Of a DNA stretch of 64,000 nt, positions 2,453 to 52,442 are shown piece after piece. Numbering within the stretch: position 1 is the first letter of the stretch; every line of letters begins with the position of its first letter. Below the pieces are notes generated by a model. That model was not told the DNA's origin. It did no database searches and saw only the letters and a list, made by a program, of their open reading frames with translations. The DNA comes from an uncultured virus (IMG/VR IMGVR_UViG_3300031993_000020) (taxonomy: Duplodnaviria; Heunggongvirae; Uroviricota; Caudoviricetes). The DNA is taken from the IMG/VR virus record IMGVR_UViG_3300031993_000020, one strand, 5' to 3'. A program made the translations under genes and the position numbers.

Positions 2453-4168
2453 ATGAGTTGTACAGAACGGATTAAATGCCCCTGGTGTAAATTAGAAACC
2501 ATCAAAGCATCACTTCCTAAACACCTAAGAGTCACACATCAGAAAACGCCGCTTGAATATTTTCTACATGTTAATGGTTTAACTGAACAGGACGTTCCTA
2601 AATGTGAATTCTGCGGGAAAGACTGTGATGCTACGATCTCTGGATTTCAACCGACATGCGGTAATCCCGATTGTATAAAAGAATGGCACCACAGAAATCG
2701 TTCTTTATCGCTATCTAAACGGCACAAAGAAGCCATTGCGAATGGCACACATAACTTTCTGAAGCATAATCTCGCCAGAGATGAGAATGGAAAATCTATC
2801 AGCAATGTCAAAGCAGCAAAGAAAGCTGTCGAAAGCGGCAAATGCTCCATCTTAGCCAAGAACAGACCACGTGATGAACAAGGCAATGACCTCTTAGCCA
2901 AGAAAATAGCTGCTGCACAAATAGAAAAAGGTGTTTTCTTCGGTGGCCATGACCTAATGTCTGAAAATGCTACCAAACGGAATTTAGACCGTTCAGTAAC
3001 TGGCAATCACCAATGGTCAAAAGATAATCTAAAGCTTAATGCTGACGGTAAGAGCATCAACCATGTAAAAGCTGCGCAGACTCAGATACAGTTGGGAAAC
3101 TTCCCCGGTCTTGGCAGATGTGATGCTCATATCTTACATAAAGATGAACTCAATAAAGAGACCTTTGAAAGTAAGTTCATCATTAACGGTCGTTTTAAGT
3201 TTGATCTATGCTGTCAATATTTTAACTTATCTGCTCCTACGATCAAAGCCAAGAAACGTGAGTTTGGTATAACGGCAGTAAATGATTCTAATCGACATAT
3301 TCAACAAAACCAAGTGTATGATTTTTTAAAAGAAATATACGAAGGTTCAATTGTGTCAAACACAAGAAGTGTCATCCCAAATCTCGAAATTGATCTTTAT
3401 CTACCTGACCAACACCTTGCTATTGAATATGATGGACTAAAGTTTCACTCGACGGGTTATAACTATAACGGAGACATGGTCGTTGTCGATAAATACTATC
3501 ATCTCGATAAAACAATATTATGCGAAGAGCGAGGAATTCAACTGCTACATATCTTTGATATCGAATGGATGTCCAACAAAAGACATATCTGGAAAGCAAT
3601 GATACGCAGACTTCTGAACAAAGTCACCGTAATTGATTCAGATGTGTGTCGTGTAATAACCGATATCAAAGATATAGAGCAATTTTTAAATGAGAATCAC
3701 ATTCAGGGCTATGCGGTATCTAAATATAATTATGGCCTGATATATGATAATCAGCTTATAGCTGTTATGTGTTTTAATGAATCTAACACTAAAACCGCAG
3801 ATTATGAACTAGTCAGATATTGTGAACTATGCGATTATACTGTTTCAGGTGGAGCGCAAAAACTCCTAGAAGCTTTTCGTGTTACTCACTCTGGAACAAT
3901 AGTCTCATACGAAAACAGACGCTGGGGACAAGGAAGACTTTTACAAGAATTAAGTTTTCAAAGACAAGTCACGTATGAACCAGAGTATTACTATTTCAAG
4001 ACCAATGATTACATGAAATTATACACACGACATGGCTTCAAAAAAGAACGCTTAAAAGGTCGTAAAGATTTTATATACGACGAGTCACTTTCCGAAAAGG
4101 AAAACATGTTCAATAATGGCTATATGCTAGTCTATGATTGTGGTTCTTTTGAATATGATCTGCAATAA
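2453..4168 (+). CDS. Free-standing homing endonuclease (Zn-ribbon, repeats, PD-(D/E)XK/DUF559-like nuclease, Hef-like C-terminal region)
   Basis: CPWC/CEFC/CGNPDC zinc motifs, EIDLYLPDQHLAIEYDG nuclease motif, NHIQG...ELVRYC...GGAQKL C-terminal domain; inserted against the operon direction. Confidence 0.75.
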   Translation: MSCTERIKCPWCKLETIKASLPKHLRVTHQKTPLEYFLHVNGLTEQDVPKCEFCGKDCDATISGFQPTCGNPDCIKEWHHRNRSLSLSKRHKEAIANGTHNFLKHNLARDENGKSISNVKAAKKAVESGKCSILAKNRPRDEQGNDLLAKKIAAAQIEKGVFFGGHDLMSENATKRNLDRSVTGNHQWSKDNLKLNADGKSINHVKAAQTQIQLGNFPGLGRCDAHILHKDELNKETFESKFIINGRFKFDLCCQYFNLSAPTIKAKKREFGITAVNDSNRHIQQNQVYDFLKEIYEGSIVSNTRSVIPNLEIDLYLPDQHLAIEYDGLKFHSTGYNYNGDMVVVDKYYHLDKTILCEERGIQLLHIFDIEWMSNKRHIWKAMIRRLLNKVTVIDSDVCRVITDIKDIEQFLNENHIQGYAVSKYNYGLIYDNQLIAVMCFNESNTKTADYELVRYCELCDYTVSGGAQKLLEAFRVTHSGTIVSYENRRWGQGRLLQELSFQRQVTYEPEYYYFKTNDYMKLYTRHGFKKERLKGRKDFIYDESLSEKENMFNNGYMLVYDCGSFEYDLQ

Positions 4169-22434: not shown

Positions 22435-23286
22435 TCACACCTCAAAGAAATGTCTCAGATAAGAAAAATTCTTAGGCTCAGCCTTTTCAGATTCTTCTCC
22501 GCCCTCTTCAGAAGTTTCTTCTTCACCTTCCTCAGAGAACATATCTTCGTCCATCCAAGAATCTTCGCCCATGTCCTCTTCTTCTGTCTCTTCTACTTCC
22601 TGACTTTCAATTATACTTTGAGCTTCCTCTTTAACAGTACGATCCTCTTTGGCAAATTCATCGATAATCGGATCAATTGCATAATCACCGGGTTCGTCGC
22701 CGTCCTTGTATTTGATTGATAGTACGGAAGTATTATTAACGGTATATTCAGTACCAAAGGTCTGCTCTTGAACTTTGCAGGAGAACTGACCTTCGATAAC
22801 TGACGGATTAACCAGCCAGAAAATATAGGAATGTCCACCATTATCAGAAAGAGTAAATAACAGTTTCAAGACCTCTTTTGTACGAACTTTAATTTCATCA
22901 TACAGACGTTCGTATAATTTAAGGTCAACCTTATTAATTGTCCAATCTTTGCGAGTAGCTACAGAGGAACAAATCTTCCAGAGCGTTACCAAGTCTTGAA
23001 CACCATCGACAACAAGCAATTTGTCCTCGTCATTATCGATCTTTAACTCTTTATAGAAAGACTCTGGAAATTCCCAGTCAATTTCACCAATATGGGCTAA
23101 CTGCGTTTTATCAAGAAGAGGAGTTATATCCAACATCGGAGAATTTTCGTTCTCCTTCTTCTCCTGATCGCCCTGTTTTGACTGCGAAGTATTTTCTGCA
23201 GATTGTGCATTTTCCTGTTTTATAAAACCATCATCGTCGGTAACAGCAAAACAACGACGTGCAATATGTAAAAATTTATTGGGCAT
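22435..23286 (-). CDS. Hypothetical acidic protein with leader MPNKFLHIARRCFA
   Basis: Probable start 23286 after GAGG; acidic C-terminus ending KNFSYLRHFFEV. Confidence 0.6.
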   Translation of the reverse strand: MPNKFLHIARRCFAVTDDDGFIKQENAQSAENTSQSKQGDQEKKENENSPMLDITPLLDKTQLAHIGEIDWEFPESFYKELKIDNDEDKLLVVDGVQDLVTLWKICSSVATRKDWTINKVDLKLYERLYDEIKVRTKEVLKLLFTLSDNGGHSYIFWLVNPSVIEGQFSCKVQEQTFGTEYTVNNTSVLSIKYKDGDEPGDYAIDPIIDEFAKEDRTVKEEAQSIIESQEVEETEEEDMGEDSWMDEDMFSEEGEEETSEEGGEESEKAEPKNFSYLRHFFEV

Positions 23287-23626
23287 TTTTAGCCTCTGCT
23301 TTCTTTCCTTTAGCCGGACTCTTTGTAGCGACGATCTTATCAATAAAATGTCCGACAGCATTCGGAACCGCCTGAGCAAGAATATCCCAAGCGAGCTGTG
23401 ATATAGAAATAGAAATCGCAATCAAGTCTGCCAACACGGTAACTGTTGGAGACACTAAATTAGTATTGAGTATACAGAGAACAATCGTAACAATCAAAGA
23501 GGCAAAAGTTGTAACTTTGCCCCGTTTGCTCTTAGTAAAGTTCTTTATTAGTTGAACGATGCCAACATCAGCCATACCGATAAAAACGGCAAGTTCCAGA
23601 ATATAAATCATGTCTACACTATTCAT
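23276..23626 (-). CDS. Holin-like small membrane protein
   Basis: 116 aa, three hydrophobic segments, basic C-terminus. Confidence 0.5.
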   Translation of the reverse strand: MNSVDMIYILELAVFIGMADVGIVQLIKNFTKSKRGKVTTFASLIVTIVLCILNTNLVSPTVTVLADLIAISISISQLAWDILAQAVPNAVGHFIDKIVATKSPAKGKKAEAKNAQ

Positions 23627-24258
23627 GCAAAACTCACCCCGCTATCCTTGATGTTGGCTTCAGTAATATTCAAATAGGAATAAACTTCATTCAAAATAAA
23701 ATTGAAGAAGTTCTTATAAGCGTCTACAGCTGTGCTCGTCGTGGAAAACACATAGTCATTATTTGCTGAAAGAGTTAATTTACTTCCATCAGCAGTCACA
23801 GTCCACGGAGCGACCATTGTTTTGGAATTAAAGATCTGCCCAGTCACAAAAAGAGGATCTGTACTCGTCTGTAAGGTTCTCATAAAAAGGTCTTCCTTAG
23901 CAGACACGAACGAAGGCTCTTTTTGAATCTTGGAAACTTCACGGATAATTCCATTAAGCATAGAAATAAACATCTGCGAAGCCATAATCTGACTCTCAAC
24001 AGATTTCGTGGAGAGGTAAGAGAGGAAAATTGGGTACTTCGTCTCTCTTACCCCAGCACTTTTTGCTACTCCATTTACGATATTGCCTTTGAAATAAGTA
24101 TTCAATGCAGTAATAGTATCGTAGATAAGCTTCCGCTTAGTATCAGTTAAGATAAGCGCTGCAGAAGCAAGTATCTTCGCTTCAACCGGAGAAGGATCCC
24201 CCTCCTCACTAAAGTATCTTTTCGCAATTCTAGCGAAATTAATAAGTTTTGTGTTCAT
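23623..24258 (-). CDS. Hypothetical protein with leader MNTKLINFARIAKRYFSEE
   Basis: ORF with AGGAG RBS. Confidence 0.65.
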   Translation of the reverse strand: MNTKLINFARIAKRYFSEEGDPSPVEAKILASAALILTDTKRKLIYDTITALNTYFKGNIVNGVAKSAGVRETKYPIFLSYLSTKSVESQIMASQMFISMLNGIIREVSKIQKEPSFVSAKEDLFMRTLQTSTDPLFVTGQIFNSKTMVAPWTVTADGSKLTLSANNDYVFSTTSTAVDAYKNFFNFILNEVYSYLNITEANIKDSGVSFA

Positions 24259-24290
24259 GAAGAGGGTCTCCTTTTTTTGACTAGTATAAG

Positions 24291-24362
24291 CGTTTACTTG
24301 AACAGGTACGAAAAGACGTCAACAAACTTGAGATTATCAAGGAATTAAAAGACCAATCAAGA
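24291..24362. repeat. Inverted copy (60/72 identity) of 33701-33772, a coding segment of the 877-aa gene
   Basis: Direct base-by-base alignment; all 12 differences are transitions. Confidence 0.9.
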
Positions 24363-24896
24363 TAGTTCTTCACACCAGTCGGGAATGCTATCTGTATTAC
24401 TATCGGAACTGCTCTGACGTTTACCATTACGAGAAAAAACTTCCGCAAACTTAACACAAATAGGTCCAGCAATTTCTTGCGCCTCTTTTGACTTAAAAAA
24501 TGCAGAGAGGTCCAAAATATAGCCCATTGCAACAGCCCAAATTATAAACATCCATACTACTAGTCGGTTACCTATTCTTAGCCCACATACAGCATTAAGA
24601 TACTGACAAAACGGAATTATATGTTTTATCAAACGTTTCGCAACTGTTTCTGGATCTTCGGAATTTGCAGCATAATTAGCTCGTACATATAACTCCATAA
24701 GATCTTCATTTGTCTCAAGATTCAAGTATTCTAGAAAGTATTTTGGTTCTATAATTCTCGGAATCAGCCACTTATTAGGATCTGTTGCTATAATCTGATC
24801 AAGCGGTTTACTCCCCTCATTCTGAGTGGGTTGAAGATTATCCTCACTAAAATACTTCCGAGCTATTCTAGCGAAATTTATAAGTTTTGTGTTCAT
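24357..24896 (-). CDS. Hypothetical protein with leader MNTKLINFARIARKYFSED
   Basis: ORF with AGGAG RBS; leader DNA nearly identical to that of 23623..24258. Confidence 0.65.
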   Translation of the reverse strand: MNTKLINFARIARKYFSEDNLQPTQNEGSKPLDQIIATDPNKWLIPRIIEPKYFLEYLNLETNEDLMELYVRANYAANSEDPETVAKRLIKHIIPFCQYLNAVCGLRIGNRLVVWMFIIWAVAMGYILDLSAFFKSKEAQEIAGPICVKFAEVFSRNGKRQSSSDSNTDSIPDWCEELS

Positions 24897-24923
24897 AAGA
24901 AGAGTCTCCTTAAAAAAAATGGA

Positions 24924-25907
24924 TTAGCCTACAATAGCCGTTTTAGCTACATCCCAAGTAGTCCCGAGACTGTCTTTTATGTTTTCAAGAAATTGCTTAA
25001 ACATTACGCCAGCGGTTGCTTCTGACCAGAATTGACTATCAGGAAATTTTTTAAGATAGTCGGCCCAAGCTTTTTCCCAACGATAACCACGATCAGCATA
25101 CCGTTTGAGGTAGTCTCGTTCGATTTGACCCACACTATTAATCCTTGAACCGATAGTACTCATTAGTCCAAAATTCGCCTTACCGCTTTGTCCACCGTTA
25201 CGACGAGAGAAGTTTTTAAAAACTTTTCCGAGAAGTTTCTTAGCTTCTTTGTCAGTAAGTTGCATACCTTTATTAAATTTTGAAGCGAGGCTACTCATAT
25301 CTTCGTCACTACTGCTTTCAAAAGCAACCGCAGCACCTTGGGCTCTAGCCATATGAAGAGCATCGGCACTGCCACAAACAGATTTTACCGCAGCAATCTG
25401 ATTCTTGCTTTTTTCTTCTTCCGTTAATTTAGCAAAATTCCGAGCATAACGACGGGTGTACCGGGAAAAATGTTGTTCTTTTGCTGAAGCGACAGTCTTG
25501 CTGTTTGCTAAAACTTCCTTAAACTTATCTTGTATCTTTGCCCAACGATCGCCATCTATTTGCGAAGCCCCTGCAGTAAAGGCAGCTCCTAAAGCATAAA
25601 GAGCTTTAGGACTCTTGTCTGGACTCGCTTCTGCTTTCTTGCAATATTTTAGAACAATAGGGTCTTTTGAGACACAGAACTTCTTCCAAGTTGAGATAAA
25701 TTCATCATCAGAAGGTAGTTCTCCAGCCCCACCATAAACTATTCCGTAAATATATGCACCTTTTTGAGCATCAGACAACGGTGAAATATTTTCAAAATTC
25801 CGTCTATTCGAGAAATTCCGTTTCTTCACGACGGTTTTCCGACTGAAACCATCAGCGTTCTCTTTGAAAAACTTCTGAGCGTAAAAATTAGTTACAGATT
25901 GATTCAT
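24924..25907 (-). CDS. Hypothetical basic protein with repeated RNFS/RNFA motifs
   Basis: 327-aa ORF with AGGAG RBS; leader MNQSVTNFYA resembles that of 31777..32793. Confidence 0.6.
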   Translation of the reverse strand: MNQSVTNFYAQKFFKENADGFSRKTVVKKRNFSNRRNFENISPLSDAQKGAYIYGIVYGGAGELPSDDEFISTWKKFCVSKDPIVLKYCKKAEASPDKSPKALYALGAAFTAGASQIDGDRWAKIQDKFKEVLANSKTVASAKEQHFSRYTRRYARNFAKLTEEEKSKNQIAAVKSVCGSADALHMARAQGAAVAFESSSDEDMSSLASKFNKGMQLTDKEAKKLLGKVFKNFSRRNGGQSGKANFGLMSTIGSRINSVGQIERDYLKRYADRGYRWEKAWADYLKKFPDSQFWSEATAGVMFKQFLENIKDSLGTTWDVAKTAIVG

Positions 25908-25951
25908 AATATAGTCTCCTTTTGCGGTCCCCTCGGGACTCTATTTTTTTA

Positions 25952-26713
25952 TTAAGCACAAACCACTTTTTCCGGTGGTGTATATCCGGGAAATTGCTTC
26001 CAGAGTTTCTTATCAATACCACCGGGATTCATTTTAAGTTTCGGGCCGTTATTCTTTTGTAGTTCCGCTTTAATTCTGTCCTTTAATTCGTTCTTAAAAT
26101 CTTCTACCCAGGGCATCTGCCTGGCAACCAAAGGAAGCATATCGTAAGCTGAATCTAAAGCGGACGGCCCAGCATCAATTAAAGTTGGCTCTCCTTCTGA
26201 CTTCTCTCTAAAAAATTCGCCAAAGCAGAAGTCATCCGTTATTTTAGGGCTCTTGGGAGGAGTGAATAACCAGGGATTGTTCTTCTTTGCTCCCATCCAG
26301 ATGAGGGAGTAAACGCCAACATAGAGCGCAGTCTCAGCTACTGTCGCATCAGGATACGTCTGTAAAAACCGACGTGGCTCCATAATATAAGGTAGACCCT
26401 CCAGAAGTTTTAAGCGAGGGTCGTTTGCAAAATTAGCATTCCGTCTATCAAATTCTTTCGGTATTAAATAATACTCTTCTACTAAATCTTCTGCCATGTA
26501 CTGCGGAATGTTTAAAATGTCTGCTACATCGTCAGGATCATCTATCCCCTGGTCACAGAGATTCCTAACTCTTAAATATTGATGAAGAATGTATTTTAAA
26601 TTGTTCTTCTCCATCTCTTTTTGAACTTGTTCAATCGGCAGATAACGATCGATAGTATTTCTGTACTCTTTGTAGAGATCCTTCTTCATTAGTACACCAG
26701 AGTAAGAACTCAT
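25952..26713 (-). CDS. Hypothetical protein
   Basis: 253-aa ORF coupled to the terminase stop. Confidence 0.55.
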   Translation of the reverse strand: MSSYSGVLMKKDLYKEYRNTIDRYLPIEQVQKEMEKNNLKYILHQYLRVRNLCDQGIDDPDDVADILNIPQYMAEDLVEEYYLIPKEFDRRNANFANDPRLKLLEGLPYIMEPRRFLQTYPDATVAETALYVGVYSLIWMGAKKNNPWLFTPPKSPKITDDFCFGEFFREKSEGEPTLIDAGPSALDSAYDMLPLVARQMPWVEDFKNELKDRIKAELQKNNGPKLKMNPGGIDKKLWKQFPGYTPPEKVVCA

Positions 26714-28551
26714 CGCCTAATCCTCCCCGCCGTCGGCATCCTGCACTGCTTCGAATATTGCCTCAAATATTTCTGCTCTGTCCGGTATTGCTCCATATTC
26801 TTAATAGCATCCATCCAGTAATTATTGTGATATTCAGAGTTTTCCAGAGGAACATCTAAAGAGTCCCCGAGATTCGCTCTAATCATTGCAAAACAACGTA
26901 CAACAGCATCACACTGGTCTTTTGCATTAACTGAATCAGTTGATGTCTTTCCGTTGTCTACTGCTTCCATATCTGAATGGTCTACCTTGTTCCCGTCCAT
27001 CAATTTGAGACATTTGAACTCACGATACAATCTTATATTGTTCGGTAGTTCTATCTTCCCTTCGCACAATGCATGTTTAAAATCTAAATAGTGCTTGTCT
27101 TTTTCAACTGAGAGATATCTCGTTTTAATTCCTATCATCTTCAGTTCTTGCGTTAATTGCTCCGTCTGAAAGTTATCGTAACAAACTGTATGTATCGGAT
27201 GCTTTTCATTTAATGTATACAAGAAATTACGTACCTTTGAAATGTTTGTTACCTGTCCCTTCTTTCGAGACAAGCCAAACACTATAGGAAATTTCACATA
27301 CAGATCCTGTACTTCTTTTTCATTTAAATTGTTCTCAATCGGAGCGTAAGATACAGAGTCGGCATAGCCAATCGCTATACCATACTCATCTGTTGCGTAA
27401 CCACAGTCAAGTCCCACGAATATATACTTATCATCAGGAAGATACGAGTCTATCGTCTCCCTCATACCTTCAATATCAATTACTTGACTATCATCATAAA
27501 AATCGACAACTTCAGTGTCTTGAATAAGCTGCGGAATTGTAAAGTAATCTTTAATCTGTGGTTCCGGAAAGAACATACCACCAGATATAAGAGCTAATCC
27601 CGCTTTCTCTTGTAATGCCAGATTAACATCAGTCGTAAACTCGTTATAAAGTTCCATGGGAACTTCCAAAATACGATTCTCATCATATCCGGAAATATCT
27701 TCACCTTCCTGAAGAATATGTGGACTTACAACTGAGTCTCCACCATAGACTTGGAACGATTTCGGATTCTTATGCCAGAATTCCCACGGCTTCACTGACC
27801 AGATGTTCGGCTGAACGAGAAAAACTTCTTTGCTGTAAGCTGATTTGTGCGTAAACCGTTCTGTCGGAGAATCAACTGTCGTATCAGAACAGTCGAGAAT
27901 AAAATGACAGAACAGACCGAGTCCTCGTCTAAAACGACCCTGCATACGAGAAAGAGCAGAATTAATTAAATTGTCTGCATCTTTATGAACGTTAATTTCT
28001 GATAACCAGACAACAGCAGCATCAGTAGAAACGATAGATTTAACGTCATACGCGGGGTCAATCTGGATGTTATCATTAAACTGTCCAGATTTCTTTAAAT
28101 CCTGAATAAATGGAGACTGATTAATTAAATTATTAACGGTATCAATAAATTCGATCGCCTTATATTTAAAAATCGAAGCACCGAACAACTTAATACCGTT
28201 CAAATTTAACAGTCTAAAAAACGCACCCGGATTTTTCATAGACAGAAGTTTTATGTAATCATACATTAATACAATCTGAGAAAATGTACTCTTTCCACAA
28301 CCGATACAACCGGTAACAACTACATAGCTGCTAGCTGTAGTTATAGGATTAGGATACAACTCTACTAACTTCTGTCTCCAATAAGGATATACGCCAGACC
28401 GACCAAGGTCACTATCCCAGTATTTCCAGCCCATATAATAAGCGTCATCTATAAAAGTAAGAATATCGGGAACTTCAAACCTGAAACCAATCTCCTCAGA
28501 TAACACTTGAAGTAGCTGGTCATTAGAATAATTAGATAAATCGGCTGGCAT
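26710..28551 (-). CDS. terL: Terminase large subunit
   Basis: N-terminal ATPase (YPYW, Walker A GCIGCGKS, WLSE) and C-terminal RNase H-like nuclease (FVGLDCG, YDNFQ, KDQCDA). Confidence 0.85.
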   Translation of the reverse strand: MPADLSNYSNDQLLQVLSEEIGFRFEVPDILTFIDDAYYMGWKYWDSDLGRSGVYPYWRQKLVELYPNPITTASSYVVVTGCIGCGKSTFSQIVLMYDYIKLLSMKNPGAFFRLLNLNGIKLFGASIFKYKAIEFIDTVNNLINQSPFIQDLKKSGQFNDNIQIDPAYDVKSIVSTDAAVVWLSEINVHKDADNLINSALSRMQGRFRRGLGLFCHFILDCSDTTVDSPTERFTHKSAYSKEVFLVQPNIWSVKPWEFWHKNPKSFQVYGGDSVVSPHILQEGEDISGYDENRILEVPMELYNEFTTDVNLALQEKAGLALISGGMFFPEPQIKDYFTIPQLIQDTEVVDFYDDSQVIDIEGMRETIDSYLPDDKYIFVGLDCGYATDEYGIAIGYADSVSYAPIENNLNEKEVQDLYVKFPIVFGLSRKKGQVTNISKVRNFLYTLNEKHPIHTVCYDNFQTEQLTQELKMIGIKTRYLSVEKDKHYLDFKHALCEGKIELPNNIRLYREFKCLKLMDGNKVDHSDMEAVDNGKTSTDSVNAKDQCDAVVRCFAMIRANLGDSLDVPLENSEYHNNYWMDAIKNMEQYRTEQKYLRQYSKQCRMPTAGRIRR

Positions 28552-28583
28552 ACTTCACCTCATTGCTTGTTTGTTTGGTTTGT

Positions 28584-29345
28584 TCATTTTAATTCTAGGA
28601 CATCTTTTGCATCTATAGAACCAAGAAATTCATTGAGCTTTTGTTCTATATCTTTATCAGTTAAGTCGCAGATCACTAGTTCTCTTGCATTGCTATCGCT
28701 GGTATGTGCAGCAAGTTCATTACTAGCAAAGTAAAATGTTAAATATAAATTAGCACTATTACTGATAGGTGTAACCAGTTGAATACAAAAGACGGCCTCA
28801 TAGAGTTCACCGGGTTTGGCTTTCTTAAGCCACTGAATAATTTCAGGATAAAGTGCAGCTTCTTCGATCTTGCGGTCAAGCGCATTAAAAATGCTATCTT
28901 TGGGATTTTTTTCGTTAGGATAGCCATTACGAATTTTATCTACCAGAAATCTTATACCAGAACGAGAGGTAGCTGGTTTTAGATAAAGATAATATTTAGA
29001 TTGTTCTACTGAAGCTGGCTTGAGTTTTTGAAGTTGTTGTTCTGCTGCTTCTAAAGTTCTCCAAAGAGTCGCTGCTGCATTTTCTGCATCCCGATGCCAG
29101 TAAATCTCACTATTTCCTTTGAGATTTCTACTGATGAATTGCATGTCTTTGGCTTTGAAAAAGTCATCAGTATCATTTTCTAAACGATCTAAAACTGCGT
29201 AAGAAGGAAACTCCTCTAACTCGTGATTAGGTAGAACTTTTAACAATCCAAGATATTTTTTTCGGCACTCCAGTGCGATATAGAGACACTTTTTCCAGAT
29301 AGGCTCATCTTCCTTACCTAAATATTCTACATTAAATGTTGCCAT
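28584..29345 (-). CDS. Hypothetical protein
   Basis: 253-aa ORF with AGGAG RBS between portal and terminase. Confidence 0.6.
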   Translation of the reverse strand: MATFNVEYLGKEDEPIWKKCLYIALECRKKYLGLLKVLPNHELEEFPSYAVLDRLENDTDDFFKAKDMQFISRNLKGNSEIYWHRDAENAAATLWRTLEAAEQQLQKLKPASVEQSKYYLYLKPATSRSGIRFLVDKIRNGYPNEKNPKDSIFNALDRKIEEAALYPEIIQWLKKAKPGELYEAVFCIQLVTPISNSANLYLTFYFASNELAAHTSDSNARELVICDLTDKDIEQKLNEFLGSIDAKDVLELK

Positions 29346-29358
29346 TATTTAACTCTCC

Positions 29359-31044
29359 TTACCAGTCACTGAAAGCGTCACTCGCTTCCTCTGAACTCAT
29401 CTCTTCTGATTCTGGTTCCTCTTCAGCCCAGGCATCTTCTCCGGAACTTTCAGAACTACCCTCGTTGGACGATCCCGATCCGCTCTCATTGTTACCGGCG
29501 ATGACATCATAATTAATCAGACCTTTCAGATCTGCGTCGGCATTCTCGAGCTCGTTCTGTAAGTATTTTAGAAACTCACCTTTATTAATTGCATCGTTGT
29601 TCATAATGTTGGTCGCTGCTTCAATAACTGAATTGATCTCATTGAATCTATCAGAAAGAGCAGTAATGTTACTTTTCTGTGCATACGGAGAAATGTACTT
29701 ATTAAGATCAAACTTGTGACTAAAGACACTAATATCATAATATTTAGCGTCTAAGCGGTACATATAAGAAACACAGAATCTACAAATCGAAGCAGAAATC
29801 GTATCTAACATGTGACTCAAAGTATTAGTATACTTCTCATACTTGGAAGAAAGTTCCCAACGATTTCCATTCCCTGTAAAAATCTCTTCGACAATATTAA
29901 GCTCGTTCTGTAACGCCTCTTTTGAAGTTTTGATGTCTTCCATTAGAGCGTCTAACTGCTCTTTAATAGAAGTTAAGTCTAGTTTCTCCAGAGCGGAATA
30001 ATCAGAAATCTGAGGAACAACTCGAATACGATTCACTAATTTGTCCTGAATCTGATTCAGGAGTTCCAGCGGATCTGAATAGGACATAACGACATTGATG
30101 TTATCTTCATTAAGAAGAGCTTCGATGTCATTGACGACGTCCATAACTTTCCTAACATCAACCTTCTGGGAAGCAACAGTCGCTGTAATAATATTACATT
30201 TCAAATAATCTGATAAGGACAACGCCTGAAAGACATACTGTTTAACAAAAAGTCGGAATATATCAGTCAGATGATCCTGAAAGTATCCCTTACCTTTATA
30301 AAGAACAGTATTTACTTCAATAGAACGCAAGAATTCTTTTACCGCTTCAGATTCCTTCTCGCCCGCTGTGTTTCTGATTGCATGAATATTCAAATCAGAT
30401 TCAATATCATCAGTCAGAGTTTTGTAATTAATCTCATCATCTTTAACTGTCTGAGAATGCTTTTCCATCTCAACTTCGGTGAACATGTCTTCTATATCTC
30501 TATCATACCAATAAGCGAAGAGATTATAGAACGGCACCTGTTGATTTTCACCTAATGCTGCGGCTAAGAATCTACCCTTCTTATTAATAAATTGAACCTG
30601 ATATGGATTAATAACTTCAGTTATTTCACGATTTGAGGAGATATTCCCTACATAAACACCGCGTTTAACGAAATCTTTTAAATGCGCAAGAATAAAATCT
30701 TTTAGCTTGTATTCCTCGATTACTTTATTTACGTGCGCCTGCAATTTGTTGTCATTACAGGAAACTCTAAAGTCATCTTTGGAAATAACTTCATAAAGTG
30801 CGTCAGCGTAGATATTAACTAACGCATTAAAGTACGGATAATCATCCAGAATATCATAATAGATATTCGGATCGAGATCCATAGAGTTCGTGTATTCACT
30901 CGTGTGATGTTTTCTGTAAGAACCGGGAGCGTCAATAGAAGAATACATAGAAGTCATTGTTGTATTCATTCTGGAGGCAAGCGAATCCATTACACCATTA
31001 AAAGAGTTCGCCACCCAAGACGAAAAATTAGCTATAATACCCAT
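29359..31044 (-). CDS. Portal protein (probable)
   Basis: About 561 aa, helical. YPYFNALVNIYAD...KDFVKRG pattern resembles portal N-termini; next to terL; acidic tail. Confidence 0.6.
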   Translation of the reverse strand: MGIIANFSSWVANSFNGVMDSLASRMNTTMTSMYSSIDAPGSYRKHHTSEYTNSMDLDPNIYYDILDDYPYFNALVNIYADALYEVISKDDFRVSCNDNKLQAHVNKVIEEYKLKDFILAHLKDFVKRGVYVGNISSNREITEVINPYQVQFINKKGRFLAAALGENQQVPFYNLFAYWYDRDIEDMFTEVEMEKHSQTVKDDEINYKTLTDDIESDLNIHAIRNTAGEKESEAVKEFLRSIEVNTVLYKGKGYFQDHLTDIFRLFVKQYVFQALSLSDYLKCNIITATVASQKVDVRKVMDVVNDIEALLNEDNINVVMSYSDPLELLNQIQDKLVNRIRVVPQISDYSALEKLDLTSIKEQLDALMEDIKTSKEALQNELNIVEEIFTGNGNRWELSSKYEKYTNTLSHMLDTISASICRFCVSYMYRLDAKYYDISVFSHKFDLNKYISPYAQKSNITALSDRFNEINSVIEAATNIMNNDAINKGEFLKYLQNELENADADLKGLINYDVIAGNNESGSGSSNEGSSESSGEDAWAEEEPESEEMSSEEASDAFSDW

Positions 31045-31047
31045 CAA

Positions 31048-31740
31048 TTATCCCCCAGCTTCTTCCTCTTCTCGTGCCTTTTTGGCATTCATATTAATTT
31101 GTGAAATAATATCACTCAAGGCATTTTGAGAAAGTCTGGCTTTGTTAGCCTTCTTGTTGTCTTCAGACATCTGTTCCAAAAGTTTATCAGAACCGACAAT
31201 ATTATACTTGTCTCGCAGATTCTGTAATTTATCAAGCCAGTCGTAAATTTCACGAATGACTGCAACAATTTCCCCGAGGTCCTGAATGTTAGGATCTTTA
31301 GCTCTTTCCATAGCAAGAGTAAGAGCTCTATCAGTCAAGAACCCCAGAGAAATAGTCGCTTTAGTTCGAGCAACGTCAGAAACGGCGTTGATCATCTTTG
31401 AAACGTATAACTTAGCAAACTCGGAGTCTTTTTCTGAGTAATCACCAATATGACTGGCAATTTCTGTAAAGTCTTTAAAGGAAACTGAAAGATTATGCTT
31501 CCCACCGAGCTCATCAAATGAAGAACTAATAATATCTTTGATTTCAGTTGTTTTTAACTGACCGGTATCGTATTCAGATTCCAGATAATCATTAATCCTA
31601 GGTGCTGGTTTTAAAGCACTTCTGTCAAGAATTTCAAACTGCTCTTCAGCAGCTTTTTGGACTTTTTCTTTTGTATCCAGCTCTTCAAACTCGTTGGCTA
31701 CATCAAAGCTCAATCTTTTTACATCATCGCTGGTTATCAT
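31048..31740 (-). CDS. Hypothetical helical protein (position compatible with a small terminase)
   Basis: 230-aa ORF directly upstream of the portal; function inferred from position only. Confidence 0.4.
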   Translation of the reverse strand: MITSDDVKRLSFDVANEFEELDTKEKVQKAAEEQFEILDRSALKPAPRINDYLESEYDTGQLKTTEIKDIISSSFDELGGKHNLSVSFKDFTEIASHIGDYSEKDSEFAKLYVSKMINAVSDVARTKATISLGFLTDRALTLAMERAKDPNIQDLGEIVAVIREIYDWLDKLQNLRDKYNIVGSDKLLEQMSEDNKKANKARLSQNALSDIISQINMNAKKAREEEEAGG

Positions 31741-31776
31741 AAAAACTCCTTAGTTAGTTTGTGTTTAAAATAGAAG

Positions 31777-32793
31777 TTAACTAGCCAATCGTTTTAAGGC
31801 AGTCATACCCGCATTATAAGTTTTAACGAATCCACCTTTTATTTGCCGCCATTTTTGAGTAGCCTTATCTTTATAAAAGACGATCCAATCTTTATTGGTA
31901 GAAGACGGTTTCACGCTTCCTATCGAAGCCAGTCTCGGAGATTTTCCTTCAGCAACTGCTTTCTTGAAAGCCTGAGTGTTGTTCAACCAGGTCTTCATAG
32001 TGCTGTCACGATTGGTAACATATTTTGCAAAACGTTCTGGATTTTCCTGTTTGGCTTTCTCACTCTTGACACCATTATAAAGAGCCAGCCAGTAAGCCTG
32101 ACTCATTAAAATCTTGAACGCCTTGTCATATTTTTCAGCGTCTTTGGAACCGTGAGCTTTAGCAACAGAATTGGAAATATTCTTAACACCACTGATAAAA
32201 TCTTTACCGAGTTTGTTCGAAATTTTGCCAGAAGGATTCAACAGATGAGTGGCGTCGATATTCGCCATTTTACCAAAAGTAGCTTTACCATTCACCATGC
32301 CGGTAAGACGTTTTTCGGCGTCACCACCTTTGTGCTCGGCAACATCAGACAGAGAAGAAGCTAAAGCATTGTAGAATTTATCACCAGAGAAAGAACCTAC
32401 TTTCTTGGACTCTTTAATGGTAGTTTCACCGTAAGTTCTCCGCATTTCTGCACGAATCTCGTTGAGCTGCTGATCGATATCTTTATCGCTGTTCACGACA
32501 AATTTCACAATCTGTGTCAGGTCTCTACCTTTATCAGGATATCTTTTAGCGAGATCACGAATGGCCTTTTCCAGAGCGAGTTCTCCCTTTTTGCCTTTAA
32601 TCAATTTAAGAGCTTCTTGGTACTCTTTAGGAAGTTCGCCGGAAGTGATAGCTGCAACTTCCTGTTTCCTGATACTAGGATCTGTAACCTTAGTAGTCAT
32701 AGCAAAGTTGCGCCGAGCAGCTTTTTTATCTAGCTGTTCAAGTTTATCATTAAAAACTTGACTGGCGTAATAATTATAAACGGAAGTGTTCAT
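31777..32793 (-). CDS. Hypothetical Lys-rich protein with a leader ending RRNFA
   Basis: 338-aa ORF. Confidence 0.6.
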   Translation of the reverse strand: MNTSVYNYYASQVFNDKLEQLDKKAARRNFAMTTKVTDPSIRKQEVAAITSGELPKEYQEALKLIKGKKGELALEKAIRDLAKRYPDKGRDLTQIVKFVVNSDKDIDQQLNEIRAEMRRTYGETTIKESKKVGSFSGDKFYNALASSLSDVAEHKGGDAEKRLTGMVNGKATFGKMANIDATHLLNPSGKISNKLGKDFISGVKNISNSVAKAHGSKDAEKYDKAFKILMSQAYWLALYNGVKSEKAKQENPERFAKYVTNRDSTMKTWLNNTQAFKKAVAEGKSPRLASIGSVKPSSTNKDWIVFYKDKATQKWRQIKGGFVKTYNAGMTALKRLAS

Positions 32794-32794
32794 A

Positions 32795-35428
32795 TTAAGT
32801 CCTCACTCTTAGTCCACCACGAGTCTTCGTTCTGAAATCACCATCTTGATAGACTAAGTATTTTTCAAAAAGTTTAACTAATAACGCACTTGGCGAAGAC
32901 ATGTCAGTTGTATTTACTTTCTTCGTTTGGCCTAAGAGACGATATAAAGCGTCAGCGTCTTTTGCCAGTTCAATGTCTCCGTCAGGAATAATACTGTTTA
33001 GTTTCTTATCTTTAGCAAGAGTTTCATCATAGAATAAATCGGCAAGACCGTCCCTCAGAACACTTAAACCTTTCTTAGGATTATACTCACGGTTATTCTT
33101 AGATTTCTTATCTAACTCAAAACAAATAGTATCCAAATAATGAAAGAGATAATCCGGCAGAATCTTTGCGCCTACTTTCTGGAACTCCTGAGAAGTCTTC
33201 GCGTTTAACAGAGACACATAGGCAGCTTGGATAAAATCTCTAGCTTTATTGCCCTGATAAACGGATGTAAAAACTTTATCTGGATTCACAAAGACGTCGT
33301 TCTCCATATTAATAGAAATATCTTGAACATAGAGAGCTTTAGACAGAATGCTGGCCTTATCTTCCGGATTAGGATATTTCTGCTGTAACATCAAGAGCCA
33401 GTTATTCGCTTTCTCTCTTTTATTATCTTCATCTGTTTTCGCTAGACTACTTTCAGAAAAACCGAAGTAACGAATAACGAAGATAGTTACACAATAGACC
33501 GTTTCAGCAGCTTTAGCATTATCTTCGGGAGAAATATTAATAATGCCGCTATCGGCAAAATAGAATCGTGAAAAAGCTTTAGCAACTGCACGTTCTACTT
33601 TTCTATTCGCTCTTCTCGCTTCTCGTCTTGCCGTCTTAGCATCAGCATAAGCTTTCTCAGCTTCATCCAGTTTCTTTTGACTCTTGTCTTTCTGCGCAAG
33701 TTTTGACTGGTCTTTTAACTTCTTGATGATCTCAAGTTCATCGACATCTTTTCGTACCTGTTCAAGCAGATGAATTGTATCAATCCGATAATTATGAGAT
33801 TCGCGGCGTTCTTTACGAAGAACTGAGCGCTCTTTCTGATTGTTGATGTCTGAACTGGTAATAACAGCCTTTTTAGGAACATAAGAATAAACTGTATCTT
33901 CTTTTCGTCTACTGGGGTCAAAAAGTTCATCGAACATATCTTGTATATGTTTAAAAACAGATATATCACGAATATCTTTATCAGAATGCTTATAAAGTTC
34001 TGATAGGTCGCGGTCAGCCAAACACTTTCTATTAAAATCATCAAGTAATACTTTTGCTCTCGGATCCTGACTTTCTTTTAACTGCTTAATATATTTTTCC
34101 TTGAACTCCAGATATTTCTTCCTAATTGGTTCATACCAGGACAAATCAGCCAAGGTAATCGTATTAGCATTCTCTCCCGAGTTGGCTCCTTCGGCTCCTT
34201 TTTGTTCTGTCCCTTCCGCTTTATCGGAAGAGCTCAAAGGTTCATTATTGTGAGCTTTAGCTATCTCTTTACCCTGCGCTTCTGCATCAATCGTATTACT
34301 CTTAACTGCAGTTGTGTCTTTGTTCGACTGCCCTTTGATATTTAAATCTTCGAGATTAGCGTCAGTATTGAAATTTCCTCTATGAATCTTTTTGAGAATT
34401 TCTACACAGTTATTATATAACCGCTGCATACTTGCTTTACCGACGGAGTTCTTAAAATCAAAGACTTTCGTTATATTATCAGGATTGTCCCGAATAATAT
34501 AACAGGCAAGAAACAGACAATAGAACAAAACATAGAGCTGATTATACTCATTGGTAAACCGATAGTTCCCCGTCTGAACTGTATACCGAAAATCAAAGTT
34601 CTGACATTTCTTATATACATTAATCAGATTAGCAACTCTCTGAGGCATTTGAGTGTTCGCCTCAAACTTTTCAGGAGCTTTAAACTCTTTTACATAGTCT
34701 TCGATCTTTAGAGTATCTTTATCTACGTTGTGTGCTCTGGCATAATCGTAAAATTTCTTAATACGATTTTTAGCGGCCTTGTAATCGTTACTTGGCTCAA
34801 TGCCGGGGCCTTCGTTGGCCACTCTAATCAGAGAATTAACGAAAGAATCTGTCAGATAATTAATATAGGTATTAATCTTCGGGTCAACCGGATACTTCTC
34901 CTCTTCATCTTTATCAGTAGAAGGAGTCCTATCTTCAACTCTGTTGCCATTAGTCTGCAACTCTTTATCCGCTTTTTCCCATTCTGGCTTCTGTTCAGTA
35001 ACCCACTTCTGCAGATCTTCATTCTTCATATTAGCCTTAGCGTATGAAAGAATGTCATTAAAGTGACCAGAGTTTTCATTAGCCAGTTGGGTGATATTTG
35101 TAAGGTCAGTTTCAGATTCTCTTTTCTTTGCAGCTTTTACCTGCTCTACAGTAAGATTTTGAAACTGTTTATCCTTCTCAGCTTCTTTTTCTTTTTGTTC
35201 AGGGGTGGCTGCATGCTTCGCTTTATTTTCATTTTCCCACTTAGCTTTAGCCCACTCATCCAAGAACTGTTTAGTAACTTTTGGATTCTGTTTTACATAA
35301 CGGAGGATCTCGTCAAAATGGTCTGAGTATTTATTCAAGACTGACCAGAGACCCGGAATACCGTATTTGAGAGTAGCGGCTCTCGCTTTCTCATCTTGTT
35401 TTTCGTTTAGTGCAAAATTTTTGTACAT
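32795..35428 (-). CDS. Large hypothetical protein beginning MYKNFA
   Basis: 877-aa ORF with GGAG RBS; internal KAFSRFYFAD. Confidence 0.6.
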   Translation of the reverse strand: MYKNFALNEKQDEKARAATLKYGIPGLWSVLNKYSDHFDEILRYVKQNPKVTKQFLDEWAKAKWENENKAKHAATPEQKEKEAEKDKQFQNLTVEQVKAAKKRESETDLTNITQLANENSGHFNDILSYAKANMKNEDLQKWVTEQKPEWEKADKELQTNGNRVEDRTPSTDKDEEEKYPVDPKINTYINYLTDSFVNSLIRVANEGPGIEPSNDYKAAKNRIKKFYDYARAHNVDKDTLKIEDYVKEFKAPEKFEANTQMPQRVANLINVYKKCQNFDFRYTVQTGNYRFTNEYNQLYVLFYCLFLACYIIRDNPDNITKVFDFKNSVGKASMQRLYNNCVEILKKIHRGNFNTDANLEDLNIKGQSNKDTTAVKSNTIDAEAQGKEIAKAHNNEPLSSSDKAEGTEQKGAEGANSGENANTITLADLSWYEPIRKKYLEFKEKYIKQLKESQDPRAKVLLDDFNRKCLADRDLSELYKHSDKDIRDISVFKHIQDMFDELFDPSRRKEDTVYSYVPKKAVITSSDINNQKERSVLRKERRESHNYRIDTIHLLEQVRKDVDELEIIKKLKDQSKLAQKDKSQKKLDEAEKAYADAKTARREARRANRKVERAVAKAFSRFYFADSGIINISPEDNAKAAETVYCVTIFVIRYFGFSESSLAKTDEDNKREKANNWLLMLQQKYPNPEDKASILSKALYVQDISINMENDVFVNPDKVFTSVYQGNKARDFIQAAYVSLLNAKTSQEFQKVGAKILPDYLFHYLDTICFELDKKSKNNREYNPKKGLSVLRDGLADLFYDETLAKDKKLNSIIPDGDIELAKDADALYRLLGQTKKVNTTDMSSPSALLVKLFEKYLVYQDGDFRTKTRGGLRVRT

Positions 35429-35451
35429 ATCAGAGTCTCCAGCCGAACGTC

Positions 35452-36390
35452 TTAGTTCTCAGCAATCGCTTTACCAATATCTCCGGCAGTGGAAATACCA
35501 TGTTTAATTAAATTATACTTCAAGAGGTCAGTTGCAGCAGTATAGAGCTTATTGTACTTACGCTCTTGAGTCTGTTCATCAGTAACCGCATTCCTCGTCA
35601 GGAAATCAGTCTCACTCTGAATCAAAGCATCGTACTCGCGATAATCCTTGTTCCCAAAGATGGCCTTTAAGTCATCAGTGAATTCCAATGAATCGGAGTT
35701 AGGATTAAGTCTGGCAGCAGCGAAGATGAACTGATCACCGGGAGCGAGCTCTTCTGTAGTCTCAGAAGCGGAGATGACTTTATTGATTTTACTTCCGATA
35801 GAGGTCGGAGCCTTCTTGGAAATAAACTCTTTAAAGACAGTTCCAAAACGAGAAGGTTCGCCAACTCTAAAATACTGCTCAACAGCATTCATATAGATGA
35901 GTTCAGTCTGACAACAGTCCAAAGCGAGTTCAATAAACTTTCTCAAATTTTCACTGTTGTCACCGATTCTCGGAGCGGAGATTGGATTTATATAAGTTTT
36001 AGGCCCACCCTGAAGAGCGTTTACCATCAAAGAGTTAGTTGCTCCCTGCTCAAAACTCATAGCTGCTCTGACAATACCTGATTTCAGAGTTGAAATGAAT
36101 TTAGCAGAATCACCGGTTCTGGCTCCTTTTAGCGGAATCTTCCACTTATGGTCTAGAAGAGCACCAAGTTCTGTAATTTTCAGGTCACCGGTATTATAAA
36201 TATAAATAGTGTCGATGGTACAGGATTTAGTTGATTCGAACTCATTTCTGAGCCAAAAAACCAAGTAAATGTCACGATGAGTTTCTTCTGGGGGATAAAT
36301 GTCACACCAGAGTCTCAAGGTAGCACCATTGATATTAAAAATAGGAGAACCGACCATTGAAGTAAGTCGATGAGGATATTTTATTGCCAT
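35452..36390 (-). CDS. Hypothetical protein, first gene of the minus-strand arm
   Basis: 312-aa ORF with GGGGAG RBS. Confidence 0.6.
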   Translation of the reverse strand: MAIKYPHRLTSMVGSPIFNINGATLRLWCDIYPPEETHRDIYLVFWLRNEFESTKSCTIDTIYIYNTGDLKITELGALLDHKWKIPLKGARTGDSAKFISTLKSGIVRAAMSFEQGATNSLMVNALQGGPKTYINPISAPRIGDNSENLRKFIELALDCCQTELIYMNAVEQYFRVGEPSRFGTVFKEFISKKAPTSIGSKINKVISASETTEELAPGDQFIFAAARLNPNSDSLEFTDDLKAIFGNKDYREYDALIQSETDFLTRNAVTDEQTQERKYNKLYTAATDLLKYNLIKHGISTAGDIGKAIAEN

Positions 36391-39150: not shown

Positions 39151-39166
39151 AAATGAGAGGTGAAAA

Positions 39167-44390: not shown

Positions 44391-44758
44391 TCGATATTGA
44401 AACTGCCAAGAATTTAGAATCGTTCTATCTCCGGTTCGATCTTCACAGACGCCGAATAATTGCCCTCTGGAAAGAAGCAGGTTCTCCTAATGATTGGGTA
44501 TCACAGAAGAAGCTACTAAAACTTTTTAGCGAATCAGTACCGGAAGTCTCTTTTGAACAGAGTAAAAAGTACAGAGACTGGCTATTTTCTGTCAAAAGTC
44601 CGATAGAAACTATTTACTCGGTCACTCACACGAGAAAATATCTGAAATATTATGGCTATTCGTTTGACGAATATCTTGAACTTATATGGATACGTTTACA
44701 ACGAGACATTCGAGTATGTAATTTAACAAGGCTCTGTTTCAAAGCAGTATTGATATAA
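44387..44758 (+). CDS. Hypothetical protein, tandem paralog 2; C-terminus altered by the TnpB element
   Basis: LESFYLRFDLHRRRIIALWKEAGSPNDW; last codons lie in the left TIR. Confidence 0.65.
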   Translation: MIDIETAKNLESFYLRFDLHRRRIIALWKEAGSPNDWVSQKKLLKLFSESVPEVSFEQSKKYRDWLFSVKSPIETIYSVTHTRKYLKYYGYSFDEYLELIWIRLQRDIRVCNLTRLCFKAVLI

Positions 44759-46224: not shown

Positions 46225-46250
46225 TTTAACAAGCATCGAGAGGAGTAATA

Positions 46251-50689: not shown

Positions 50690-52442
50690 ATGTTACAAAA
50701 TTTTATTTCTGAACTAAACCCAACCAGCATTGTAGTATCATTATATCATCCGAGACTGTTTCATCTCTATGGTAAATTTAAGAGAGCCTTGGAATATACA
50801 ACGAGAAATGGAGATGAGAGCACAAAGAAACTACTGAAACATTTATCTGATATTGAAACAGGAGTATCTGAAGACGGCTTTAGATTAAAATGTGAATCAC
50901 TGGGATTTTCAGATACATTGATTGAATCACACACAAGGACCTTCTCTTTATGTTCAAAGTTGGAAGGCGACGATTTTAAGTGTCTTATTTCTAAGATAAA
51001 GAATTTTCTGATCGATGAAGAAATAAGATATTGGATGGAAAAGTACAACAAGGATCATGAACCAGATGAGTTTATCGACAAGATAGCAGAATTGAAGGTG
51101 TCAGATTTAAACAGCAACTTCAATGACCCTAAAATGTTTTCCACCTGTTTGTTTACAGATATTGACCCGACGAATGTAACTGCGGAATTTGAGAAAGGTG
51201 TTTTAAAGAGTACCTTTTCTCTTATAAACGATTCTGTAGCTGTAGGAGGATATGTCCCTGGGTCAGCAACGGTATTCTGTGGACCGACAAAAGCTGGGAA
51301 ATCTCTGATAGCGATGCAGGAGACGATAAACTTTCTGAAGCAGGGGGCTCATGTTTTATATTCGGCGTTTGGTGATTTGAATAAGAATCACTTTTTAGCA
51401 CGTATGACAGCCCAGATAAACAACAGACCTATTTCTTATACAATGAAGCATCCTGTGGAAGAAATGAAGCAGGCGGTAAAACTTGTACCAGAGCTGAAGA
51501 ATTTGGACTTACAGTTTTTAGCTCCTGACAAATACACATCAGGTGATTATGTAGACTATTTAAAGAACGCATATGCTAAGGACGGGATAACTAAGTTACA
51601 TGACTGGGCAGATGTTATAGTTGTTGACTATGATGCGAATTTAAAGACGAAGTTTGAAGACAATATGTATAAGAAAGGTGAAGACATTTATCAGAATTTG
51701 TATTCTTTGGTTTATCCGGATAAAATTCTGATAATTCTTGCACAAACATCAAAGATCGCGTGGGAAAAAGAAATTGTGGAACTGGGAGATTTAGGAGAGT
51801 CTTCCCGGAAGCAGCAAATTGTCGACATTTTCTAATGATGGTGTCGTAATTCAGTGAAATGCTGGAACATCCTTAGAGTCTAAGTATAGGTTTCTACCGA
51901 TGAACAAGCCTTAGAATTGGATAATCAGCAGCCTAGTAGAAAAAAATATTCTAAAGGTTCAACGACTATTCCGAAAGGAAGTACACTCAAGTGAGTGGAA
52001 GTGCTGAACAGAAGCAATTAAGTTTTGCTTTTGAAGATATAGTCTGATCTCATATGAAAGTATGAGCTGGTTTTATGCCGGGTAGAGATTAACGACCTCT
52101 ACTGAACATTTATGGATCATTAACATCTCCTATCCACGCGCACAAATGGTGAATCAGAACAATGTAGTAGGATATTTGAACCTCTGTGCTAACCGTAATG
52201 GGGTAGCAAAGATGGTTACTTATATGCGAGATATTTCCGGTAGATTTTATGAAATATCTCTGGACGCTTATGGTCTTATTAAGAACGCAACCGATGCAAA
52301 GACATTTATTCCTGATATTGATATATTCAATAATGATTTAGCAGGAGAAGACTATACCGTTATCGCAGACCGCAAGGCATTAAGGCCATTATTCTTTGAA
52401 CCTCCGGATTCTGATGCTGAAATCTTGGAGGAGGATGACTAG
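50690..52442 (+). CDS. DnaB-like replicative helicase, two exons (50690-51829 and 52116-52442; about 488 aa)
   Basis: Walker A GPTKAGKS, VVDYD, LAQ, LGESSRKQQIVD; splicing restores VDI|IINISYPR...ANRNG in frame. Confidence 0.85.
51830..52115 (+). ncRNA. Group I intron (ORF-less, 286 nt)
   Basis: P AAATGCTGGAA, Q AATCAGCAG, R GTTCAACGACTA, S AAGATATAGTCT. IGS TAATGATGGTGTCG pairs with the ligated exons CGACATT|ATCATTA (U-G at the 5' site); terminal G at 52115. Confidence 0.92.

Follow-up and report, generated by a model that had tools for sequence, protein, structure and literature searches.

Inverted copy of a coding segment as a probable recombination footprint in an accessory cassette of a novel large phage

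In T4-type phages, orphan open reading frames (ORFs), or ORFans, are flanked by promoter early stem-loop (PeSL) motifs, and homologous exchange between these flanking motifs of ~70–100 nt is proposed to delete or insert the cassettes that they enclose (Arbiol et al. 2010, PMC2839356). The internal proteins of T4, in turn, are diverse and have one conserved capsid targeting sequence (CTS) in common (Rao & Black 2010, PMC3012670). Here, we analyse a stretch of 64,000 nucleotides (the window) from an uncultured virus of the Caudoviricetes (IMG/VR record IMGVR_UViG_3300031993_000020), in which a 72-nt intergenic sequence, copy A, is an inverted copy of a segment, copy B, that lies within the gene for a protein of 877 amino acids (aa). 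In our favoured reading, to which we assign a probability of about 0.6, copy A stems from a diverged homologue of the 877-aa gene and survives as a passenger relic in a cassette that is gained and lost at repeats of a leader shared by two neighbouring genes. The repeat would thus be best filed as a recombination footprint within an accessory cassette, and its locus as a plastic one in a novel large phage.

Paired sequences of this kind can also be read in other ways. Phage genes are regulated by antisense RNAs and by duplexes cut by RNase III, for example in lambda sib retroregulation and at the RNase III sites of T7; to our knowledge, the duplexes described in phages, which related phages have in common, form either as local hairpins or where antisense transcripts overlap. 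In Mu (Gin/G), P1 (Cin/C) and the shufflons, the inverted repeats of an invertible segment are coding. We therefore weigh copy A as a recombination relic, as one arm of an RNA duplex and as an inversion substrate, and then turn to the shared leader and to the genome in which it resides.

The inverted copy and its accessory cassette

Read against the reverse complement of copy B, copy A is identical at 60 of 72 positions (coordinates in Table 1), and all 12 differences are transitions (from B to A: G>A 5, A>G 3, T>C 2 and C>T 2). The ungapped core of the repeat measures 64 nt (24297–24360 and 33703–33766) and is 88% complementary, the longest exact run common to both copies is 20 nt, and a weak similarity of copy A reaches on to 24280 via one indel, for perhaps 83 nt in total. 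This inverted homology is far beyond chance: local blastn within the window finds it with an E-value of 2.8e-12, a pattern made from 24 nt of the core occurs, with up to three mismatches, at exactly two sites in the window and at none in 100 dinucleotide-preserving shuffles, and the runner-up inverted repeat across the whole 64 kb is 54 nt long and 78% alike. An earlier reading of this DNA, made from the letters alone (the sequence-only reading), had described an inverted copy with 60 of 72 positions identical and transitions only, which fills the gap just upstream of the ribosome-binding site (RBS) of the 211-aa gene, and both descriptions hold. Copy A takes up nearly all of the 98 nt between the stop codon (TGA) of the 179-aa ORF and the ATG of the 211-aa ORF, and the RBS of the latter, AGGAGA, lies directly downstream of it.

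Table 1. Positions of the features discussed, counted from the first nucleotide of the window
Feature	Position	Strand	Remarks
211-aa gene	23623..24258	-	leader is the sole part in common with the 179-aa gene
Direct repeat, copy 1	24203..24273	-	RBS and first 18 codons (leader MNTKLINFARIAKRYFSE) of the 211-aa gene
Segment missing in relatives (179-aa gene and copy A)	24265..24914		from the joins in X4 and X5 contigs
Copy A	24291..24362	+	intergenic; homologous to codons ~553–576 of the 877-aa gene, in opposite orientation
179-aa accessory gene	24357..24896	-	hydrophobic stretch around residues 113–135
Direct repeat, copy 2	24841..24911	-	RBS and first 18 codons of the 179-aa gene
327-aa gene	24924..25907	-	upstream; left neighbour of the empty site in relatives
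Terminase large subunit homologue, 613 aa	26710..28551	-	between copies A and B
877-aa ORF	32795..35428	-	near-orphan
Copy B	33701..33772	-	encodes HLLEQVRKDVDELEIIKKLKDQSK; within the charged central region of the 877-aa gene

Copy B encodes residues ~553–576 (HLLEQVRKDVDELEIIKKLKDQSK) of the 877-aa ORF, and copy A, on the plus strand, keeps the frame of B (RLLEQVRKDVNKLEIIKELKDQSR) and then runs into a TAG at 24363–24365; it has no start codon, and a further in-frame TAG stands at 24282–24284. Of the 12 differences, seven are silent in the frame of B and five exchange residues (H/R, D/N, E/K, K/E and K/R), so that 19 of 24 residues are kept. This resembles ordinary coding divergence, although the resemblance is suggestive only, because at least 19 of 24 residues would be kept with p=0.13 under 12 random transitions. 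The B segment is rich in two-fold degenerate codons (K, E, D, Q and N), in which transitions are the sole silent changes. Homologues of the 877-aa protein span residues 1–70, 180–391 and 673–872 only and leave the B segment uncovered; an exhaustive HMMER search with this protein gave three matches, none of them over residues 392–672, and its sole protein match, P0004, is a four-residue variant in which the B segment is unchanged. When residues 500–640 were compared with shorter proteins, none of the 148 candidates reached E<=1, and the 877-aa, 211-aa and 179-aa proteins have no match in PHROGs, Pfam, NCBIfam, PDB or Atlas.

The cassette itself is bounded by two direct repeats of 71 nt, which are 82% identical (97% over a stretch of 32 nt within them) and spaced 638 nt apart, and which flank the 179-aa gene together with copy A; the variable unit of ~640–650 bp thus consists of an accessory gene and its 3' spacer. 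Each repeat is made up of an RBS and 18 codons rather than of a promoter and a terminator: we found no terminator-like site in it, and promoter-like sites occur at the level of chance (7 vs 7.0 expected). The 179-aa and 211-aa proteins start with MNTKLINFARIA(R/K)(K/R)YFSE and have 16 of their first 19 residues in common, whereas their remaining parts are unrelated. Two database relatives of the 179-aa protein, P0005 (181 aa, 81% identity, on two Logan contigs of up to 3,924 nt) and P0006 (156 aa, 31–40%), carry a leader identical to its own, and because P0006 does so at 19 of 19 residues despite its low overall identity, the leader is a strongly constrained module on diverse bodies.

Presence and absence of this unit can be followed in relatives. 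Contigs of four sequencing runs were aligned to positions 23000–36000 at a likeness of at least 80%, two of the runs (X1, a possible source, and X2) being those closest to the window and the other two (X4 and X5) holding relatives from other studies; among the X4 contigs, 22 of 29 are 95–99% alike to the window and the other seven 90–95%. An X4 contig passes from 24264 straight to 24915, 9 letters lying in between, and in X5 a 647-nt contig passes from 24246 to 24914 over 28 letters. Two of the four runs aligned thus have a contig that bridges the site, and both show an empty site with a single motif, where the 211-aa gene stands directly behind the 327-aa gene and both the 179-aa gene and copy A are gone. 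Read depth agrees with these joins: the bin 24302–24735 has a depth of 0 in X4 and X5, while the bin that holds copy B (33416–33849) has a depth of 4.98 in X4 and 0.93 in X5. The long form, with the cassette, is probably real as well: sampled 31-mers of 24000–33999 are found at a share of 1.00 in X1 and of 0.91 in X2, which comes from another study. These shares bear on the thought that the tandem arrangement and the fragment are a chimera of co-existing strains, produced during assembly. Strain variants are indeed present at this very site, and the listed X1 and X2 contigs (Logan) do not span it; however, the exact 179-aa and 211-aa proteins are each found on three contigs of up to 198,555 nt, and an exact A/B match of 20 nt at most is too short for a misjoin at usual k-mer sizes, so that with the 31-mer shares we give an artefact next to no credence.

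The age of copy A can be gauged from the divergence within the lineage. Copies A and B differ at 12 of 72 positions (16.7%), whereas X4 differs from the window at 194 of 5,488 positions (3.5%) across the eight pieces listed, and the piece from the 877-aa gene has 36 differences in 513 positions (7%). The probability of at least 12 differences in 72 is 7e-6 at a divergence of 3.5% and 0.004 at 7%, and it reaches 0.05 only at 10%; copy A is hence not a recent copy of the resident B. One further observation on the 877-aa gene comes from a 62,223-nt contig of X5, which belongs to a more distant relative with patches ~80% alike: it matches the leader repeat (24202–24273) and many late genes and has no match of at least 80% across 31537–35759, and therefore the 877-aa gene seems to be among the fastest-evolving parts of its block.

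In the reading that we favour, copy A would be a 72-nt piece of a diverged, 877-like coding sequence that entered along with the cassette, its source being a more diverged relative, and it would now be only the 3' spacer of an accessory cassette, with no function of its own. Homologous recombination at the leader repeats, either within one genome or between co-infecting relatives, would insert or delete the cassette, and cassette-bearing genomes (the window) and cassette-less ones (X4 and X5) would coexist for that reason. That copy A is complementary to the 877-aa mRNA would then be a by-product of its origin. A recombination scar had been the last alternative named in the sequence-only reading, and the flanking repeats together with the absence of the unit from relatives now favour it over the others.

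Much the same facts, namely the homology, the frame and the state of the relatives, would fit an old scar within this genome: copy A may have been copied long ago from the genome's own 877-aa gene and have drifted since, for instance as filler templated at a junction of repair or template switching during insertion of the 179-aa gene, with the tandem arrangement ancestral and the cassette lost in X4 and X5 through exchange at the leader repeats. Replication-based repair is known to leave inverted templated insertions at junctions, and the weak extension to 24280, the single indel and the in-frame TAG look like decay. Such a scar would, however, need two independent losses or one old loss to account for X4 and X5, would require 19 of 24 residues to have been kept without coding constraint (p=0.13) and would demand a long residence to reach 16.7% divergence; we regard it as unlikely, if still worth serious thought.

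Several points weigh against the passenger relic that we prefer. A donor gene or protein with an A-like end was not found in the searches with the 877-aa protein and its residues 500–640, and the excess of synonymous changes and conserved positions in copy A is not significant at the p-value given above. The view of copy A at the DNA level comes from the cassette-less relatives X4 and X5 alone; X1 and X2 have no listed contig over 23434–25169, a hole that proves nothing, and the contigs are silent on whether the state with or without the cassette is ancestral. Absence from X4 and X5 shows that copy A is dispensable for those genomes and not that it lacks a function where it is present. Finally, among the variants of X5, which are more divergent, 313 of 476 (66%) are transitions, at which rate 12 of 12 would be expected with a probability of 0.007, a residual oddity. 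At the DNA level, blastn in distant mode with 23400–25100 and tblastn with the 877-aa and 211-aa proteins found no relatives among phages, searches for related loci in viral, metagenome and genome contigs (queried with alignment A2 and with the proteins of 877, 613 and 327 aa) gave none, and the exact 24-nt core pattern had no match in viral contigs.

Pairing and inversion

In the sequence-only reading, copy A had been taken above all for one arm of a maintained RNA duplex, as either a trans antisense RNA or a long-range stem. On this account, the polycistronic RNA of the minus strand would pair with the 877-aa mRNA over ~64–70 bp, in cis or in trans, leading to RNase III cleavage or a block of translation, and carriage of the cassette would retune the 877-aa gene. 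Both arms do belong to one co-oriented gene block and are on its transcribed strand, and the minus-strand duplex has a predicted energy of -96.8 kcal/mol, ~11 better than the -85.5 kcal/mol of the opposite strand pair. The earlier count of G-U-compatible differences in the core, 6 of 8 on the minus-strand RNA, is correct, whereas the bias read from it is not borne out: every transition pairs as G-U on one of the two strands, so that the null expectation is 50%, and the binomial p-value is 0.14 for the core and 0.39 for the whole repeat (7 of 12). Duplexes of B with copies that carry 12 random transitions have energies of -91.7 +/- 5.8 kcal/mol, and in 19% of 500 trials the duplex matched or exceeded the stability of the actual pair. 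No significant pairing signal between A and B is thus shown by either measure.

Nor do the relatives speak for a maintained duplex, the copy being absent from 2/2 bridged relatives, X4 and X5, although X4 still covers the region of the 877-aa gene; such an absence had been named in the sequence-only reading itself as a ground for refutation. Copy B, moreover, falls in the non-conserved middle of the 877-aa protein, and Rfam has nothing at threshold at or near copy A, the top match being snoR14 with 20.2 bits against a gathering cut-off of 40 (E 0.22). The local fold of 24240–24380 on the minus strand is no better than that of shuffles (z = -1.09), the spacer that holds copy A has no terminator-like site, and a -35/-10-like match in copy A (minus strand, 24360..24333) is one of 7 such sites where 7.0 are expected. 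No RNA run is among the 12 listed sequencing runs with this DNA. Taken with the pairing tests, we consider a functional duplex improbable. The outer stem of the predicted local fold, 24280–24293 with 24370–24380, brackets copy A with 10–12 bp, three of them G-U, and the 179-aa protein has its conserved DWCE end encoded in one of the arms.

The all-transition pattern has a plain explanation in this setting, because natural variants of the lineage are rich in transitions: 269 of 339 variants in X4 (79%) are of this kind, which gives a probability of 0.06 for 12 of 12, and the pattern is here only mildly unusual. A caution follows for similar cases, namely that a coding source rich in K, E, D and Q yields all-transition, G-U-compatible differences unaided. 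A narrower form of the pairing idea would make copy A an antisense module borne by the cassette, in which the 64–72 nt gained with the 179-aa gene pair with the resident 877-aa mRNA. If true, a mobile gene would retune a core virion gene in trans, via an RNase III-type cut or a translational block, and a cassette-borne antisense regulator would be at work in a large uncultured phage from runs labelled bovine gut; we hold this to be quite improbable.

The inverted arrangement also raises the question of a DNA inversion substrate, another proposal of the sequence-only reading. Exchange between A and B would flip a 9.4-kb block and fuse codons 1–552 of the 877-aa gene to copy A and its TAG, giving a truncated product of ~576 aa. 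Constant plus variable parts are the layout of invertible-segment systems, and copy A lies in the frame of B with a stop directly after it. Several points count against it. Among the joints seen in the contigs of the four runs, none connects A to B with a change of strand, bearing in mind that contigs drop rare variants; 18 joints were reported; 15 are listed, every one a skip within an X5 contig, and the three unlisted ones are presumably the X4, X5 and X2 joins (24264 to 24915, 24246 to 24914 and 23420 to 34776). In the 58 window ORFs scanned, the window being 64 kb out of a genome of 198 kb or more, no resolvase, invertase, integrase or reverse transcriptase family was found, nor any serine or tyrosine recombinase family. 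The arms, 88% alike, have a longest exact run of 20 nt, and inversion would leave the terminase gene and some nine further late genes pointing opposite to the rest of their block. An inversion substrate is accordingly very hard to believe in, and the proposal was rejected for want of a recombinase family among those 58 ORFs.

Two further candidates were set aside. The X2 joint from 23420 to 34776, with 1 letter between, was judged to be a short spurious match at 80% likeness, its sides being estimated at ~18–25 nt from a loose end at 23403 and small depth increments. A diversity-generating retroelement (DGR) was rejected on two grounds: the changes hit all four bases and are not adenine-specific, and the 58 ORFs contain no reverse transcriptase family.

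Leader family and genome context

As a footprint of accessory-gene shuffling in a large phage, the repeat is a known kind of thing and in itself ordinary; more curious are the shared leader and an N-terminal motif, NF[AS]. Cassette exchange appears here to use an RBS and a coding leader as portable homology, and this leader belongs to an N-terminal signature, NF[AS], that is widespread in the late block. Of the 25 ORFs in the minus block (late/structural), 14 have this tripeptide among their first 45 residues, vs 1 of 32 in the plus block; its background elsewhere in those proteins is 0.089 per 45 aa (binomial 3e-9). Its carriers include the 877-aa, 211-aa, 179-aa, 327-aa and 338-aa proteins, with examples at positions 24237, 24875, 21505 and 35419. 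NF[AS] may be a propeptide, protease or virion-targeting signature, and if it marks proteins that are targeted to the virion or processed by a protease, it would open a way into the structural proteome of this uncultured phage of at least 198 kb, which otherwise defies annotation.

A third ORF with a related leader is located at 20426–21565 on the minus strand (379 aa as listed, with the true start probably later), where NFSSIARKYFADE stands around 21470–21508 and local tblastn gives E-values of 0.001–0.01, and therefore the leader family would have at least three members in the window. The N-termini of the 327-aa protein and of the 338-aa protein (31777–32793, minus strand) are similar (MNQSVTNFYAQKFF... 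and MNTSVYNYYASQVF..., followed by an RRNF or KRNF motif), and these two proteins may be paralogues.

The exact 179-aa, 211-aa and 877-aa proteins occur together on a contig of 198,555 nt, which places the phage genome at 198 kb or more. The 12 runs comprise five labelled bovine gut metagenome, four labelled gut metagenome and three without a label. Between the copies, the sequence-only reading had placed a portal-terminase block, and confirmation is limited to the terminase: in tblastn, the 613-aa ORF matched 266 records and shows 28–30% identity, across 91% of its length, to terminases annotated in phages of 150–207 kb, and in Atlas it is recognized as a terminase at 0.99 by features and with a TM of 0.72 by structure. 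No Pfam or PHROG match in the minus arm (1–36390) passes the curated cut-off. In the plus arm, the genes encode a DEAD-type helicase, a Dam methylase, TnpB, a dCMP deaminase, RusA, a 5'-3' exonuclease, a deoxynucleoside kinase and a family-A polymerase.

The window also has features unconnected to the cassette. A group I intron at 51820–52066 on the plus strand matches the full length of the Rfam model RF00028 (76.5 bits, gathering 50) and starts at the end of the 381-aa ORF 50690..51835, and therefore this gene is probably split by the intron. The int-alpA small RNA (sRNA) family has a match at 2364–2432 on the plus strand (38.6 bits, gathering 35.8), just upstream of the plus-strand ORF 2453..4168. 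Downstream of the helicase gene, at 38935–39163, two clusters of an 11-nt tandem unit (GTGAGGCA core) with nine overlapping copies look like the iterons of an origin or an operator array. The TnpB-type gene (44812–46215, plus strand) has an OrfB_IS605 match (6e-22) and a Cas12f1-like TNB domain and is flanked by a 33-nt inverted repeat of 79% (44728–44760 and 46194–46226), which suggests an IS200/IS605-like element in the replication arm of the phage. Lastly, a 63-nt direct repeat (50599–50661 and 63813–63875) in the plus arm is intergenic, 73% identical and separated by 13.2 kb.

Comparison with known systems

DGRs have template and variable repeats, and as in that arrangement there are two copies of ~70 nt here, of which one is genic and between which only point substitutions are seen; unlike in a DGR, the copy is inverted and is not at the 3' end of a gene, and the mismatches lack specificity for adenine. 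With the invertible segments, the locus has in common an inverted repeat within a coding region and a second copy in frame. It differs from them in that no recombinase gene is seen, the arms are 88% and not near identical, essential packaging genes lie inside, and the inverted form is not seen in the contigs of the four runs. The RNase III duplexes of phages resemble it in so far as a long, near-perfect duplex is possible between co-directional late transcripts, whereas the one here would bridge 9.3 kb, is missing in close relatives and shows no substitutions biased towards pairing.

Closer likenesses are found in the two T4 systems. The leader recalls the CTS proteins of T4, in which, too, only a short N-terminus is conserved and the genes vary between related phages (PMC3012670); the 179-aa and 211-aa proteins, otherwise unrelated, agree at 16 of 19 residues in just this part. 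A leader of the CTS kind would direct packaging into the prohead and be removed by the prohead protease; the leader here has no sequence relationship to T4 and is likened to the CTS by its position and conservation. Compared with PeSL shuffling, in which the motif is an early promoter with a stem-loop terminator and excised mini-circles carry a chimeric motif, the repeat here is an RBS with 18 leader codons, the locus lies in a late/structural block next to the terminase gene, and a stray fragment of another gene is included in the cassette (PMC2839356). The arrangement is nevertheless the same in outline in both: an orphan accessory ORF stands between two copies of a motif, and a close relative has an 'empty' site with a single motif (PMC2839356).

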